Assembly: GCA_017447445.1 (NCBI GenBank)
Contig: JAFSNK010000030.1
Coordinates: forward strand, 14,260 to 78,259
Reading direction: 5' to 3'
Length of the DNA: 64,000 bases
Source: Clostridia bacterium
GTDB lineage: Bacteria; Bacillota; Clostridia; Oscillospirales; CAG-382
In this document: piece after piece, positions 30,346 to 48,942 of the stretch
Numbering within the stretch: the first letter of the stretch is position 1
Layout: every line of letters begins with the position of its first letter
Notes under the pieces: model-generated
Database searches by the model: none
Told to the model about the DNA's origin: nothing
The model's input: the letters and a program-made list of their open reading frames with translations, nothing else
Made by a program: the position numbers and the translations under genes

Positions 30346-30554
30346 TAGAAAGGGCGTATAAATATATCGGCGGCGCAAGGCGGTTTCGTCATTTTGACAT
30401 ATACGAAATTCGTTTATTTTCAAGGAGTTTCGACCTTTTTTGCAGTTGAAACGCGTCGATTTTCGGCGAAAAATTTTGCTTATATTTACAAACATCCGTT
30501 CGCAAAGCCGGAAAACCCTTGCGGCGCGGGCGTTTCGACACTTTGCGAAAGGAG

Positions 30555-44589: not shown

Positions 44590-45930
44590 TTAATACTCTT
44601 TGATCGCTACGCATTCAAGACTGTTGAACGTCCCCTTTAATTCTTCCCTCAATTCGCGGATCATTTCCGCGGGAATGCGGGAATTCTGTATATAGAGTTT
44701 GAGTCCTTCAACACCCTCGGGTATAAGTCTGCCGACGTTGATCTGACCGTCGCCGGCGTCGCCTGCGCGCTGGATCTCGGCGGCGATAATGTTAACTTTG
44801 CAGCCGTCGCCGACGCGTGCAAGCAGGTTTGCAAACGTTACCTGCGAAATAAACGTGTTTGCAAATTCGATTATGCATCCGTCAAAACCGGATTCCGGCT
44901 CCGACGCCGCCGAACCGTCGTAGGTTTCTTTACAGTTTGCAAACGTGAGTCTGCATCCGTCGCCGAGTTTATCGAGCGCCAGCTTAACAGCGCCGGTGCA
45001 GAGCAGCGCGTTGGCGACTTCGATCCTGCAGCCGTCCGTCCTGTCGCCGGGATCGACGCTCTTAACCGGATCCGAACGCTCGATCATCACGTTGGCGAAT
45101 ATGGCGTTCTGACCGTCGTCAAGCAGCCCGAGCTGCTCCGCGAACTGTTGTTCGTCCATCCGGCGGTTTCCGATCTCGAGGTCGTATTCGATTTCCTCGT
45201 CCTCTTCATCCTCGTCCTCGTCAAGATGATCGATGATATCCTCGAGGTCTTCGGGATCCAGACGCACCCTTTGCTTTTTCAGGACAGAAGAAACGATATT
45301 CTTCACAGTTGCGCCGACATCTCCGAGCTTGTCAAGCTGATCAAGCCCGTGGATTTCGAACCCTTCCTTTTTTCCGGGGGATGACGCGCCCGCGCAGGCG
45401 TGCCGCCATTCCTCGTAAGTGCAGTCCGGCAAGGCGGCGTATACCTCGGGATCCGCCGGGGCGTCGAGCGTAACACGGCAGTCATACGCGAAAATATTGA
45501 TCTGATATACCGCGCCGTCGCCGGTGGAATACGGCAGCTCGAACACGCGTACCAGCCCGCCGTCCGCCGTCTTTTTATTGACCGACGGCGCAAACCGGCT
45601 CTGGGCGAGCGGATAAACGGTTTTGTCATCCGGATCGAGCACGTCGAAGATCGCGGCTCGCAATTCAGATCCGTCGCAAAGTGTGCCGTCGCTGACGACC
45701 TCTATGCGAAAAACGCAATCGGTGTGCGGTTCGAGATCTTTCTTTGCGAATATCCACGTGCCGAAATGGTCGCGGCTGCCCGGCGCTCCCTGCCTCTTCC
45801 AGTCGTCAACGGTACCGAGCTCAAACACCTCGCGGTACGAACCGTTTTTGGTGACGAACATACGTCCGCCATACTTATTCTGCGAACCGAATCTGAAATC
45901 TCTTGCTTTGAATTCTATAATGTTTTCCAT
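44590..45930 (-). CDS. Hypothetical cytoplasmic protein (446 aa) with an acidic linker and C-terminal DGC-x-FAN repeats
   Basis: Long ORF with host-like codon usage and an AGGAG RBS. It has no signal peptide. I recognise no family. Confidence 0.7.
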   Translation of the reverse strand: MENIIEFKARDFRFGSQNKYGGRMFVTKNGSYREVFELGTVDDWKRQGAPGSRDHFGTWIFAKKDLEPHTDCVFRIEVVSDGTLCDGSELRAAIFDVLDPDDKTVYPLAQSRFAPSVNKKTADGGLVRVFELPYSTGDGAVYQINIFAYDCRVTLDAPADPEVYAALPDCTYEEWRHACAGASSPGKKEGFEIHGLDQLDKLGDVGATVKNIVSSVLKKQRVRLDPEDLEDIIDHLDEDEDEEDEEIEYDLEIGNRRMDEQQFAEQLGLLDDGQNAIFANVMIERSDPVKSVDPGDRTDGCRIEVANALLCTGAVKLALDKLGDGCRLTFANCKETYDGSAASEPESGFDGCIIEFANTFISQVTFANLLARVGDGCKVNIIAAEIQRAGDAGDGQINVGRLIPEGVEGLKLYIQNSRIPAEMIRELREELKGTFNSLECVAIKEY

Positions 45931-46112
45931 AAAAAAATACTCCTGTTATCAATTGTGTTGACAACGGACGGAGCACGAGTATGCAAAAGCCGGATAATGC
46001 GGTCGCCGGCATACTCTGCCCGACCGTGTTTCACCAGCCCCGCCGCCCTTTTCGGGTAGGTCGTGCCGATGATCTTTCCTTCTGCATCCGTTACAATAAA
46101 GTTTTTTGCTAT
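45915..46112 (-). CDS. Candidate unannotated small protein (65 codons counted from AUA) with an RRXRR-like N-terminal motif and no canonical start codon
   Basis: The hand-translated minus-strand frame reads (I)AKNFIVTDAEGKIIGTTYPKRAAGLVKHGRAEYAGDRIIRLLHTRAPSVVNTIDNRSIFLWKTL*. AAAGGGGGAG lies 6 nt upstream of the AUA at 46112. The first canonical in-frame start is a GTG at 46034, which would cut through the motif. The stop lies 14 nt inside the 446-aa gene. Confidence 0.3.
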   Translation of the reverse strand: MAKNFIVTDAEGKIIGTTYPKRAAGLVKHGRAEYAGDRIIRLLHTRAPSVVNTIDNRSIFLWKTL

Positions 46113-46126
46113 GGGTTTCTCCCCCT
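46101..46126 (-). repeat. Leader direct repeat, copy 3 in transcript order
   Basis: The minus strand reads AGGGGGAGAAACCCATAGCAAAAAAC. Confidence 0.8.
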
Positions 46127-46161
46127 TTGTAACCGATTATTCAATTTTCTTTACGGCTTGC

Positions 46162-46187
46162 GTTTTTTGTTATGGGTTTCTTCCCCT
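46162..46187 (-). repeat. Leader direct repeat, copy 2
   Basis: The minus strand reads AGGGGAAGAAACCCATAACAAAAAAC. Confidence 0.8.
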
Positions 46188-46210
46188 GCCGTTCGCATTT
46201 GCGGTCAACG

Positions 46211-46236
46211 TCTTTTTGTTATGGGTGCCTCCCCCT
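46211..46236 (-). repeat. Leader direct repeat, copy 1
   Basis: The minus strand reads AGGGGGAGGCACCCATAACAAAAAGA. It begins a few nt after the predicted TSS. Confidence 0.8.
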
Positions 46237-46246
46237 CCGCGGTTTT

Positions 46247-46275
46247 ATTATAACACGGTCAAAACGGTTTGTCAA
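46247..46275 (-). promoter_or_regulatory. Exact-consensus sigma-A promoter of the repeat leader and 446-aa gene
   Basis: The minus strand reads TTGACA-17 nt-TATAAT, immediately after the upstream terminator. Confidence 0.65.
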
Positions 46276-46278
46276 CAG

Positions 46279-46305
46279 AAAAACGCCCTTTTACCGGGCG
46301 TTTTT
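46279..46305 (-). terminator. Intrinsic terminator of the GH73-dockerin gene
   Basis: The minus strand reads AAAAACGCCC-GGTAAAA-GGGCGTTTTT. Confidence 0.7.
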
Positions 46306-46320
46306 GAAATCGTTTTGTTT

Positions 46321-48942
46321 TTACAGCGTATACGTCCCGAGCACGGCGCGTTTTATCATCGCGTAGTCGGTAACGGTGATATAGCTCCTGCCGCTTACGA
46401 GCGCGGCGGCGTACTGAAATTCGTCCGGAGTGAAGCTGCCCAGGAACGCGCGCTTGATCATGGCGTAGTCGGTCGCGTCGATCCTTCCGTTGCCGGAAAC
46501 GTCGCCCCGCACTATAACCGTTACCGAAGAGACGGTTTCCCCGCCGCTTTGCAGCAGGAGCCGGCATCCGGTCACCGCGAGATCGTCCGCGGAAAGCGCT
46601 TCGCCGGAGGCGCTTACCAGCGCGACTTCGCCGGTGAACGCCGCGAGCAGACTGCCCGCCTTGGTTTCCGCCTTAACGCCGAGCAGCATATTCGAAGTGA
46701 GCGTGAGCGAGCCGTCCGTCAACCCGTATTCGCCGGAGCCGCCGGAGATATTGGCAAGATATTTGCCCAGCACGCGAATGAACTCCGCGGAGCAATAACC
46801 GCTTACGTTTCCGCTTTCGCGCACCCATTCGACGCGGTACCAGCCGTTTTCCGGTTCGCCGAAGAGCAAAAGCTCTTCTCCTTCGGGGAGCTGCGCGAGC
46901 GAACCGTAGTTCGTGCCCGGTCCGGCGCGCAGGTTAAGAAGCGTTGTAGGAGTGCCGCGGTAAATGGGAACGATATATTCCGCGGAAGCGTAGCCGCTTA
47001 TGCGTTTGCCGTCCGGATCCGTCCCGGTGACGCGGTACCAGCCGTTATCCGGCTCGCCGATAAGGATTATTCGCGCGTTTTCGGGAAGCGTGCCGACCGA
47101 TTCGTAATCCGAGCCCGGGCCGGTGCGGACGTGCAGGACCGAAGTCGTTTCGGCGTACTGCCGTTCACCGCCGGGAAGCGGTTCGGTCCCGGAGCCGCCG
47201 GAAAGCCGGGCGTAGCCGTAGGTCGCCTGGATATTGCCGGGCGTGCGTGTGCCCACAACAAAGCTCCAGCCGTCCTCCGGTTCGCCTATCACCGCGCAAT
47301 CGGAGCCGTTTATAAGTATCCCGTAGAAATAGGAACTGACCGATCTGTCTTCGTATACGTAAATATTTTCGCCCGCGGGGACGCGGTTTACAGCGACTTT
47401 GGGCGCGACGTACAGCAGATAAGCGCCGTTGACGTATCCGGTGACCGACCTGCCCGCGGTGTTGAGCCCGGTGACCTTGCACCAGTGCCCTATCGGTTCG
47501 CCGCTGACTCGCACCTCGGTGAGGAACGGTATTATTCCGACGATGGAGCTTTCGCCGTCCGGCTCCTTGCGGACGTAAAGCGTTTCGTAGGCGGTGACGA
47601 GCGCGCGGTATTCCGCGTGGGTATCCGCCACGGTCACGCGGAGCGTCCGCGAGATACCGTTTGCCGAAGTCGCGGTTATATCCGCCGTGCCGTTGTCGGC
47701 GGCGCAGACTCGCCCCAGCTCGTCGACGGTGGCGACAAGCGGGTCGGACGAAGTCCAGATAAGCAAGGTGTCGTCCGCCAGCGCGGGGACGACCGCCGTT
47801 TCGACTGTGTATATATCGCCCGGGACGAGCGTTACCGAATCCTTTACGAAGGCGATTTCGGAAACGTCGCATCTGTGCGGCACGACGTTGTCCGCGGAAA
47901 CGTATCCCGTCATAACGTCGCCGTTGATGTTATATCCGTAGACGCGGCGGAACGCGCTTCCGTCCGGGCCGTAATAGAGCGCGTCGGAAAGCGTTTTCAC
48001 CGGAGTGCCGTTATACATATAAACGTAGCCGGAGCCGACGTCCGGGGAGGAATGCACCTTCGCCCAGGCGTCCACTATGGTGGCGTTGCAGTCGACGTAT
48101 ACGATACAGCACGCCTCGCGCCCGTTGGCGAGCGTGGCGGTGATCAAAGTCGTTCCGTGGGCGAGCGCGCGCACGTTGCCCTCCTCGTCCACCGAGGCGA
48201 CCGATTCGTTGTCGCTCTTCCAGGTGAGAACGGACGGCTCCGCTTCCGGGAACGCGGAAACGGTCAATTGCTCGCTTTCGCCGATATCGAGCCACATACG
48301 GTCTTTATTGAATATTATCCCGACGATGCCGTCCTCGTCCGGAGTCTGGTCGTCGTATTCGGTCAGGCCGTATTTTTCTATGCATCTTATAACGCTTTCG
48401 GCATAGCCCGCGTCGCCGCAGTAGCCCGTGGTCATAAGCAGGCGGGCGACGTCTTTATAATCGTGATTGCCGACGATGGCGTTGAAGCGCGATTCATAAA
48501 AGAACAGCCAACTGTGCGTATCGACGCTGTCGCGCCAGGACCGGTCCGCCCGCCAGGCGGAAACGGTGTTCGCGTAGGACGCGCCCTTCGCCGTGAGCAG
48601 GTCGGAATACGAAGCGTAGGTGGTTCCGCCCGTCGGGTCGAATATCATACCCGGCGAATTGAAATAAGCGCGGATGCCGAAAAGGTTGTTCGCCGCGGCG
48701 GGAAGCGTGTAGGCGGCGAATCCGCTTTCGACTATCGCCTGAGAAACGGTTATCGACGCGAGCACGTCATTTTCGTAGTAATCCGCGCGGGCGAGCGAGC
48801 CGAGCGTGCGGATGAAATAGACCTGCAGCCGGTGCAGCCCGGGGTAATCGGCAGCCGCAAAGGCGGAAAACGGCAGGGCGAAAACGGCGGGCAGCAAAAG
48901 CGCCAGCGCCAGTATGAAAGCTATGTATCTGCGTGTTTTCAT
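46321..48942 (-). CDS. Secreted multidomain peptidoglycan hydrolase: GH73-like glucosaminidase, two Big_2 domains, several SH3_3 domains and a C-terminal dockerin-like module
   Basis: Signal peptide MKTRRYIAFILALALLLPAVFA. Glucosaminidase-like block SQAIVESGF...NNLFGI. Big_2-like LTVSAFPE...WKSDNESVASVD. SH3-like LHVRTGPGSDYESVGTLPE...GWYRV repeated. Dockerin loop GDVSGNGRIDATDYAMIKRAFLG, followed by a second, degenerate segment. Confidence 0.85.
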   Translation of the reverse strand: MKTRRYIAFILALALLLPAVFALPFSAFAAADYPGLHRLQVYFIRTLGSLARADYYENDVLASITVSQAIVESGFAAYTLPAAANNLFGIRAYFNSPGMIFDPTGGTTYASYSDLLTAKGASYANTVSAWRADRSWRDSVDTHSWLFFYESRFNAIVGNHDYKDVARLLMTTGYCGDAGYAESVIRCIEKYGLTEYDDQTPDEDGIVGIIFNKDRMWLDIGESEQLTVSAFPEAEPSVLTWKSDNESVASVDEEGNVRALAHGTTLITATLANGREACCIVYVDCNATIVDAWAKVHSSPDVGSGYVYMYNGTPVKTLSDALYYGPDGSAFRRVYGYNINGDVMTGYVSADNVVPHRCDVSEIAFVKDSVTLVPGDIYTVETAVVPALADDTLLIWTSSDPLVATVDELGRVCAADNGTADITATSANGISRTLRVTVADTHAEYRALVTAYETLYVRKEPDGESSIVGIIPFLTEVRVSGEPIGHWCKVTGLNTAGRSVTGYVNGAYLLYVAPKVAVNRVPAGENIYVYEDRSVSSYFYGILINGSDCAVIGEPEDGWSFVVGTRTPGNIQATYGYARLSGGSGTEPLPGGERQYAETTSVLHVRTGPGSDYESVGTLPENARIILIGEPDNGWYRVTGTDPDGKRISGYASAEYIVPIYRGTPTTLLNLRAGPGTNYGSLAQLPEGEELLLFGEPENGWYRVEWVRESGNVSGYCSAEFIRVLGKYLANISGGSGEYGLTDGSLTLTSNMLLGVKAETKAGSLLAAFTGEVALVSASGEALSADDLAVTGCRLLLQSGGETVSSVTVIVRGDVSGNGRIDATDYAMIKRAFLGSFTPDEFQYAAALVSGRSYITVTDYAMIKRAVLGTYTL

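Follow-up and report, generated by a model that had tools for sequence, protein, structure and literature searches.

The 64,000-nt window analysed here, a stretch of a Clostridia bacterium genome (GenBank assembly GCA_017447445.1, contig JAFSNK010000030.1, positions 14,260 to 78,259), contains a locus in which a promoter is followed by three tandem copies of a 26-nt unit, each resembling a translation start with ATA at the place of the start codon, and by the open reading frames (ORFs) of a gene that belongs to a large family in the Clostridia. The features of this locus are collected in Table 1, in window coordinates, which run on the minus strand throughout. The GH73 gene upstream (Pfam matches Glucosaminidase, SH3_3, Big_2 and Dockerin_1) stops at 46321 and is followed by a hairpin with a T-run, which was read by eye and was not among the outputs of a terminator scan. 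An earlier note, made from the letters of the window, had described an exact TTGACA-17-TATAAT promoter directly after this terminator, and both features are present as described, with the transcript predicted to start at about 46241-46239.

The three copies of the unit are spaced 49 and 61 nt apart, share 81-92% identity and each consist of a Shine-Dalgarno (SD) tract, a spacer, ATA and an A-tract, and the frames opened by their ATAs run for 5, 10 and 65 codons; the repeat coordinates and the window sequence agree with the earlier note on all of these points. In the 64-kb window a degenerate 23-mer for the unit matches these three copies and nothing else, where shuffles predict 0.00 matches, and a covariance model of the unit gives meaningful scores at the three copies alone (48, 28.5 and 25 bits), indicating that the unit is not a dispersed repeat, a possibility that the earlier note had wished to see checked. 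ATA is kept in three of three copies in two related assemblies (a 2021 NCBI metagenome-assembled genome and an ENA assembly; loci L002 and L003) and in L210, of which the last is the assembly of a near-identical strain and the other two are the closest relatives otherwise, with 85% protein identity. This rules out a sequencing error, as had been supposed from the recurrence of ATA within the window.

Table 1. Features of the locus, with start sites, transcript end and folds as predicted.
Feature	Position	Strand	Details
Intrinsic terminator of the upstream GH73/dockerin gene	46277..46302	-	AACGCCC/GGGCGTT stem, 7-nt loop, T-run; read by eye
Sigma-70-type promoter	46247..46275	-	TTGACA 46275-46270, 17-nt spacer, TATAAT 46252-46247, TG extension; 12/12 match
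Unit 1, hairpin at predicted mRNA 5' end	46201..46240	-	26-nt copy 46236-46211; core GGGGGAGGCACCC-ATA-ACAAAAAGAC; ATA 46222-46220, 5-codon frame; closing stem GCGG 46240-46237 / CCGC 46204-46201; flank duplex -7.6 kcal/mol; covariance-model score 28.5 bits
Unit 2, predicted hairpin	46153..46192	-	26-nt copy 46187-46162; core GGGGAAGAAACCC-ATA-ACAAAAAAC; ATA 46173-46171, 10-codon frame; closing stem ACGGC 46192-46188 / GCCGT 46157-46153; in centroid fold; flank duplex -9.2 kcal/mol; covariance-model score 48.4 bits, E 1e-9
Unit 3, predicted true translation-initiation region	46088..46135	-	26-nt copy 46126-46101; SD AAAGGGGGAG 46128-46119; core runs to AAAAAAC; start codon ATA 46112-46110; closing stem GGTTACAA 46134-46127 / TTGTAAC 46096-46090 (codons 6-8); flank duplex -9.1 kcal/mol
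Coding sequence of 42-residue PLMP-like N-terminal domain	45987..46112	-	(M/I)AKNFIVTDAEGKIIGTTYPKRAAGLVKHGRAEYAGDRIIRL
Linker and out-of-frame tail of small ORF (codons 43-65 and TAG stop)	45915..45986	-	Overlaps body ORF start; in-frame linker in relatives
Internal translation-initiation region of body	45928..45944	-	AGGAG 45944-45940, N9 spacer with T7, ATG 45930-45928
Body ORF, 446 residues	44590..45930	-	Low-confidence beta-sandwich, acidic disordered linker, C-terminal leucine-rich-repeat-like repeats (model)

The earlier note had read the copies as a triplicated translation-initiation region within an untranslated leader of about 310 nt. The first part of this reading is right, but copy 3 does not belong to the leader: as judged from homologous sequences, a conserved coding sequence for a domain of 42 residues has its true start here, and the leader measures about 130 nt. 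The 65-codon frame translates as IAKNFIVTDAEGKIIGTTYPKRAAGLVKHGRAEYAGDRIIRL followed by a 23-residue tail. A word-indexed protein search with this small ORF returned a single homologue (P0001, 42 residues), because gene callers do not call ATA starts, and the wider family was reached by a full HMMER search with the 42-residue domain. P0001 has ATG exactly at the position of the window ATA, and its contig carries an upstream unit with ATA. In more distant relatives, whose bodies are 35-58% identical to the 446-residue body of the window, the small frame forms the N-terminus of one long ORF that begins from the last unit as MAKN... or MEKN..., and one or two further units with ATA or ATT lie upstream of it.

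The HMMER search recovered 660 clusters at 50% identity, in which the domain is nearly always N-terminal and the C-terminal regions are varied. A scan of species-representative genomes with the domain profile placed the family at no fewer than 599 sites, in Ruminococcus, Oscillospiraceae and Lachnospiraceae, cultured strains included. Cultured carriers are Ruminococcus albus AR67/KH2T6, of the ATG type (L017, L021), and Huintestinicola butyrica, of the ATA type (L040), in which the gene begins ATA GGA AAA AAC; a scan of genome contigs with the 446-residue body had given no matches. Neither Pfam nor NCBIfam has a family covering the small ORF, the body or their homologues. Every family gene examined carries at its start a 25-nt core, GGGGnnGRnACCC-AUR-RnAAAAAAC, and the DNA around the start is almost invariant in 80 protein-anchored loci (AAGGGGGAGAYACCC-ATR-GAAAAAAAC).

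Of the start codons within this core across the family, about 47% are ATA, about 45% ATG and about 8% ATC. The protein-anchored loci hold 38 ATA (and three more with an insertion), 38 ATG and one ATC, with GTG and TTG never found, while 195 distinct terminal units, collected with a regular expression that detects ATN alone and is silent on GTG and TTG, comprise 88 ATA, 85 ATG, 19 ATC and three ATT. Genes that start with ATA and genes that start with ATG are under the same purifying selection, with a median ratio of nonsynonymous to synonymous substitution rates in the domain of 0.19 and 0.22, respectively. No canonical in-frame start lies upstream in 40 of 110 non-ATG genes, and another 36 have only one, which abuts the G-run. 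Among 303 pairs sharing 85% nucleotide identity or more (loci L001-L210), 138 differ in the state of the codon. Compensation of ATA by a stronger SD or a weaker stem was considered and rejected, as neither changes with the swap between ATA and ATG. Across the family, AUA and sometimes AUC thus act as the start codon in about half of the members.

Since about half of these genes start with AUA, standard gene callers shorten them, extend them wrongly or miss the domain, which affects annotation in Clostridia of the gut and rumen, where the family numbers 600 or more species-level genes. Many called proteins read ...KGETP-I-EKN..., in which the SD unit has been translated and Ile stands where Met1 belongs; false N-termini such as 'MIPIEKN' and 'KGETPIEKN' result, and the domain of the window is not called at all. 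In public protein sets, for example in P0019, P0020, P0025, P0034, P0038 and P0094, the callers extend through the SD unit or begin at a GTG or ATG inside it, and some called proteins hold a translated upstream unit. The conserved and portable 25-nt context, in which AUA and AUG alternate under equal selection, makes non-AUG initiation in Firmicutes directly testable.

A second start lies further downstream. Domain, linker and body are read in a single frame in 186 of 192 family genes, where the body begins (MSKVINFNAREF) at an in-frame GGAGG-N7-ATG located internally around codons 57-62. Since this internal start is canonical, the body can be made without the domain, implying two protein forms from one ORF, and the upstream AUA or AUG start would govern the domain-bearing form alone. 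In the window this form is a free 65-residue peptide, as a 1-nt deletion relative to L002 (AACAGGAG for AACAAGGAG), also present in L210, puts domain and body out of frame. The body itself offers no functional lead from structure models and belongs to no Pfam or NCBIfam family.

The junction between the two ORFs of the window (45930-45950) reads ATT TTT TTA TGG in the frame of the small ORF and contains a T TTT TTA heptamer (45936-45930) in the X XXY YYZ phase, at which a -1 slip would reach the ATG of the body exactly; the T7 run is also the spacer between SD and ATG in all close relatives, and the heptamer may be a coincidence. The conserved linker residues 'TEE/TED' are the translated internal SD. 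The linker DNA (TTGCATACTCGTGCTCCGTCCGTTGTCAAC...GATAACAAGGAG.ATTTTTTTATG; window 45931-45986, loci L001-L010) is near identical next to bodies that are only 35-58% identical as protein, suggesting a constraint at the RNA level around the internal start.

Nearly every leader of the family contains one upstream unit and a minority, the window included, contain two; the covariance model finds units that the regular expression misses. The consensus of the upstream units is GGGGAYGRCACCC-ATA-RNAAAAAAC, and its core is strongly conserved well beyond the SD, with high information at positions for which pairing to 16S rRNA gives no explanation. In protein-anchored loci the codon is ATA in 71 upstream units, ATT in seven and ATG in four. 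In 134 of 159 leaders the distance from a -10-like box to the start of the first unit is 6-7 or 12-13 nt, which places this unit at the very 5' end of the transcript as predicted from these boxes; in the window 11 nt lie between the -10 box and the first unit, space enough for the closing stem. The predicted duplex with the 3' end of 16S rRNA has a mean energy of -10.5 kcal/mol at true starts and of -7.8 kcal/mol in upstream units.

The upstream unit is tied to the gene family. Its pattern has 123 matches genome-wide, and by a strict motif test 99 of these have a domain ORF within about 60-200 nt; among the remaining 24, four run off the end of the locus and the domain is visible by eye in 14 of the 19 inspected, leaving five undecided. 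All 124 covariance-model matches in 260 kb of related loci fall in family leaders, on the strand of the gene. The frames opened by upstream units vary in length from 2 to more than 90 codons, the spacing between units is spread about evenly over the three phases (60/57/43 across residues modulo 3), and the stop position is scattered, so that no upstream ORF conserved in peptide, length, phase or stop position was found across the leaders.

Each core is enclosed by short complementary flanks, the sequence of which is specific to the locus (for example CGAUG/CAUCG, CGGCA/UGCCG, GCAGAC/GUUUGC, and AUCA/UGAU against AUCG/CGAU), and in the RNA of the window these form the stems GCGG/CCGC, ACGGC/GCCGU and GGUUACAA/UUGUAAC. 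Cognate flanks form more stable duplexes than non-cognate ones in upstream units (-5.4 against -2.9 kcal/mol, p = 5e-19) and in terminal units (-6.4 against -3.2 kcal/mol, p = 1e-49), and exceed composition-preserving shuffles of their own 3' flank in both (p = 5e-23 and 1e-31, respectively). The earlier note had looked to related loci for covariation, and there the unit is conserved and column covariation in a model-fitted alignment is 0.203, against 0.105 for shuffles, a value that none of 500 shuffles reaches and that also exceeds slid controls. A fixed-register stem count on the ungapped alignment is weak (41% paired), because the register of the stem varies; the duplex comparisons, which are free of register, were decisive. 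In terminal units the 3' strand of the stem is formed by codons 6-8 (I-V-T) and co-varies with the 5' flank. This maintenance of complementarity while the flank sequence changes favours a function exerted by the RNA over one exerted by the DNA.

Inside the core, the invariant GGG/CCC pairs are the sole prediction of RNAalifold, in line with the short stem that the earlier note had thought possible, and a rare variant, GGAGC-ACC-GCUC, retains the inner pairing. The core can thereby form a mini-hairpin of three base pairs, followed by an A-rich strand. In the window such mini-hairpins, with GGG, a 7-nt loop and CCC, lie at 46235-46223, 46186-46174 and 46125-46113; speculatively, their gross shape of three G-C pairs and a 7-nt loop is like that of the initiator-tRNA anticodon arm. 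An Rfam scan of 45700-46500 with E up to 10 gave eight chance-level matches, none of them on the units, and at gathering score the matches in 20 related loci were confined to RNase P, a tRNA and TwoAYGGAY, all of them outside the leaders.

The domain encoded from the terminal unit was modelled with AlphaFold2 from a 40-sequence alignment as a beta-beta-alpha-beta-beta fold over residues 1-42, with a predicted local distance difference test score above 90, strands at 5-8, 14-18, 32-36 and 39-42 and a helix at 20-28. The predicted four-stranded antiparallel sheet with one helix is superimposable on solved PLMP domains. The top nine Foldseek matches in PDB are all IscB or IsrB (44-49 columns, 22-27% identity, probability 0.97-1.0), with root-mean-square deviations mostly of 1.7-2.2 Å (5.1 Å for the top hit, 9k2z) and E values of 0.07-0.3 that are not significant alone; N-terminal domains of initiation factor 3 (IF3) are found lower in the list. 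By sequence, the family profile matched the PLMP stretch of TbaIscB at E = 0.031, hhalign against the PLMP sequence of DtIsrB (from PMC9581776) gave E = 1.9e-4 with 48% probability, and 12 of 20 members match Pfam RRXRR (PF14239) below threshold, the best at E 0.0012. These matches lead to the conclusion that the encoded domain and the PLMP domain are remotely related, with IGxTYP replacing the PLMP residues in the former. The strongest hint at a mechanism comes from this likeness to an RNA-binding domain. Pfam, NCBIfam and structure models revealed no nuclease domain (RuvC or HNH) in the bodies examined, and no omega RNA (HEARO/omega families) was matched by Rfam at the window or at 20 related loci.

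The descriptive parts of this account, namely the anatomy of the locus, its conservation, the exclusivity of the unit to the family, the closing stems, the use of AUA and the similarity of the domain fold, are held with high confidence. The function that is tentatively favoured, as a possibility and short of an expectation, is that the hairpins are putative operators bound by the PLMP-like domain made from the same mRNA, affecting its translation. Translational operators bound by a product of the same mRNA include the MS2 coat protein/replicase hairpin and ribosomal-protein leaders, and negative feedback is expected of them. The likeness would lie in a hairpin containing the SD and/or the start codon and in a small, putatively RNA-binding protein on the same transcript, whereas the operator here is repeated two or three times and the putative binder is the N-terminal domain of a larger protein with an independent internal start.

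Another parallel is offered by IsrB, whose PLMP domain, a four-stranded sheet with a helix resembling the N-terminal domain of IF3, makes contact with the hairpins SL7 and SL8, arranged in tandem at the 3' end of the omega RNA, which is encoded ahead of the IsrB gene; the gene-proximal hairpin includes the SD of that gene, and a role in the regulation of expression was suggested (Hirano et al. 2022, PMC9581776). The family described here shares with IscB and IsrB a small N-terminal domain of the same sheet-plus-helix fold, with the best structural and weak sequence matches, and tandem hairpins directly upstream of the gene, the gene-proximal one of which holds the SD. It differs from them in lacking RuvC, HNH, the bridge helix, the target-adjacent-motif (TAM)-interaction domain, the guide, the 200-300-nt omega RNA scaffold and a transposon context, in not conserving the PLMP residues, in having hairpins that are near-identical repeats with a start-like AUA, and in having varied non-nuclease domains as C-terminal partners. 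By analogy with the contact of IsrB PLMP with tandem SD-containing hairpins, the PLMP-like domain would bind the hairpins of its own mRNA, occupation of the last hairpin would exert feedback on initiation from the AUA or AUG start, and the copies at the 5' terminus would supply further sites and probably shield that end as well.

Several points weigh against such an operator. The link between domain and hairpins is drawn from analogy and co-occurrence, and common descent of gene and leader could give the co-occurrence. The homology to PLMP is marginal by sequence (E 0.03 to 1e-3, below curated cut-offs, and 48% in hhalign), and the P-L-M-P motif of strand 2 is absent, I-G-x-T-Y-P standing in its place. 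IsrB PLMP works inside a large ribonucleoprotein with RuvC, a context absent here. The loop differs systematically between upstream units (GACGGCA) and terminal units (GGAGAAA), with ACGGCA against GAGAAA at the six variable positions, so a single binder must tolerate both. ATA and ATG swap freely among close relatives without compensation in SD or stem, which no model considered here explains. Finally, the unit is a complete ribosome-binding site with its first copy at the 5' end, as a ribosome-based stabiliser would need. This last point leads to a rather unlikely but live alternative, in which the upstream units are standby or 5'-stabilising sites that hold the 30S subunit by means of their SD-like tract and near-cognate AUA but do not lead to productive translation, guarding the 5' end from RNase J1 and/or passing ribosomes to the true start, with the domain uninvolved. 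The precedent is the STAB-SD of Bacillus thuringiensis cry3A, a 5' element resembling an SD, to which 30S binds and which blocks RNase J1 (reviewed in PMC4113751; Agaisse & Lereclus 1996), which likewise lies near the 5' end of a Firmicute mRNA, far from the real start, is complementary to 16S rRNA and is not used to make protein. The upstream units agree with this precedent in their predicted 16S pairing and 5'-terminal position, in being near-copies of a start region that works even with AUA, and in the rarity of ATG among them (4 of 82). STAB-SD is, however, a bare SD-like tract, whereas the unit consists of a hairpin built on an invariant core of 25 nt, with AUA as a start-like codon and an A-tract. 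It is a duplicate of the true start region and is confined to one gene family, while STAB-SD-like elements are not bound to one protein domain. The unit also conserves positions without 16S pairing (G-4, A-1, CCC, AUA, the +4 purine and AAAAAAC), and both the closing stems and the hairpin of GGG/CCC occlude its SD. At the third codon position of upstream units A is favoured over U and C (71:7:0), a preference that no model explains. A survey of all 64 start codons in E. coli reportedly found AUA, AUU and AUC similarly weak, so that near-cognate pairing alone should not yield a preference for A. The operator and stabiliser readings are not mutually exclusive and are the two live explanations; binding sites for a regulator and decoy or standby ribosome sites had both been among the proposals of the earlier note.

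Other readings of the leader fare worse. Translated upstream ORFs, in which initiation at the AUA of units 1 and 2 would yield short peptides that control the main start, for example by melting the next closing stem, would profit from the fact that an identical context supports AUA initiation in the terminal unit, from the short frames of the window and from upstream frames in some loci that end on UAG or UAA overlapping the main AUA, with a stop at +1 in 16 cases; this reading is nevertheless improbable given the scatter of frame length, spacing phase and stop position and the lack of any peptide conserved beyond the RNA core. Coupling by termination and reinitiation through a stop overlapping AUAG or AUAA was dropped, as phase and length are not conserved. 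Tandem small-molecule riboswitch aptamers in the style of preQ1-I, a small hairpin with an A-rich tail that sequesters the SD, would account for the invariant core, the co-varying closing stem and the A-rich 3' strand beside an SD-containing G-C helix, and the general shape of the preQ1-I aptamer resembles the unit. The 7-nt loop is, however, too small for the preQ1-I pseudoknot, the Rfam scans of the window and of the 20 loci gave no match to the units, the upstream copies have no expression platform, and the unit is tied to one protein domain with varied C-terminal partners and not to a metabolic pathway, making a riboswitch highly improbable. Scarcely credible, finally, are DNA operators for a transcription factor or functionless remnants of a tandem duplication of the gene start, which direct repeats just 3' of a promoter might suggest: the flanks keep their complementarity despite sequence change, which points to RNA, the covariance-model matches are all on the gene strand, and a core kept in position and sequence across Clostridia whose downstream proteins are unalignable rules out neutral remnants. 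CsrA-type GGA sites and sporulation-sigma promoters were dropped after comparison by eye, as the conserved positions do not fit their consensus sequences.

The operator reading has a more speculative extension, unlikely to be correct as it stands, in which the PLMP/IF3-N-like domain and the hairpins would form a self-contained module for the control of initiation. The hairpin, which recalls the initiator-tRNA anticodon arm in shape and adjoins AUA, would allow ribosomes to use AUA about as well as AUG, tuned by the nascent or free domain. The gene infC, encoding IF3, autoregulates through its AUU start codon, with the start-codon discrimination of IF3 residing mainly in its C-terminal domain. 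The present family resembles infC in a conserved non-canonical AUN start and in a product with a fold like that of the IF3 N-terminal domain, and differs in the free alternation of ATA and ATG among relatives. If such a module existed, it would explain the interchange of ATA and ATG across hundreds of species, and the contact between PLMP and SD-containing hairpins in IscB and IsrB, the ancestors of Cas9, may have begun as a translational feedback device.

Leader elements, autoregulatory operators and the PLMP-hairpin contact are of known kinds, while no earlier description was found of their combination or of a family-wide AUA start. The earlier note knew of no element with this architecture, and no Rfam, Pfam or NCBIfam family was found for it, nor any paper on the motif, on the gene family or on its use of AUA as a start. 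The unit defines a cis-regulatory RNA motif outside Rfam with a plausible protein partner on the same mRNA. No earlier case was found of a PLMP-like domain outside the OMEGA nucleases IscB and IsrB, and here the domain is again found next to tandem hairpins that belong to its own gene and contain the SD, which is relevant to the original role of the domain.

The upstream neighbour in the window, the GH73/Big_2/SH3_3/dockerin gene (46321-48942, minus strand), has a counterpart at locus L007 (1-896), where an SH3_3 and dockerin neighbour is found in the same place, while in other relatives the gene sits between GDPD and Ldh_2 or after yabP-yabQ-divIC-S1. These differing neighbourhoods indicate that the gene and its leader move together through different contexts. 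An association with phages was considered and rejected, as only seven matches were found in 2.9 million viral contigs. Elsewhere in the window, a weak covariance-model match at 30389-30441 on the minus strand (14 bits, E 0.5) lacks the core and is regarded as chance. One family gene has a TwoAYGGAY RNA (107 bits; L048 257-420) roughly 1 kb upstream, and another is adjoined by an RNase P RNA (L037 355-707), both RNAs being unrelated to the leader motif.

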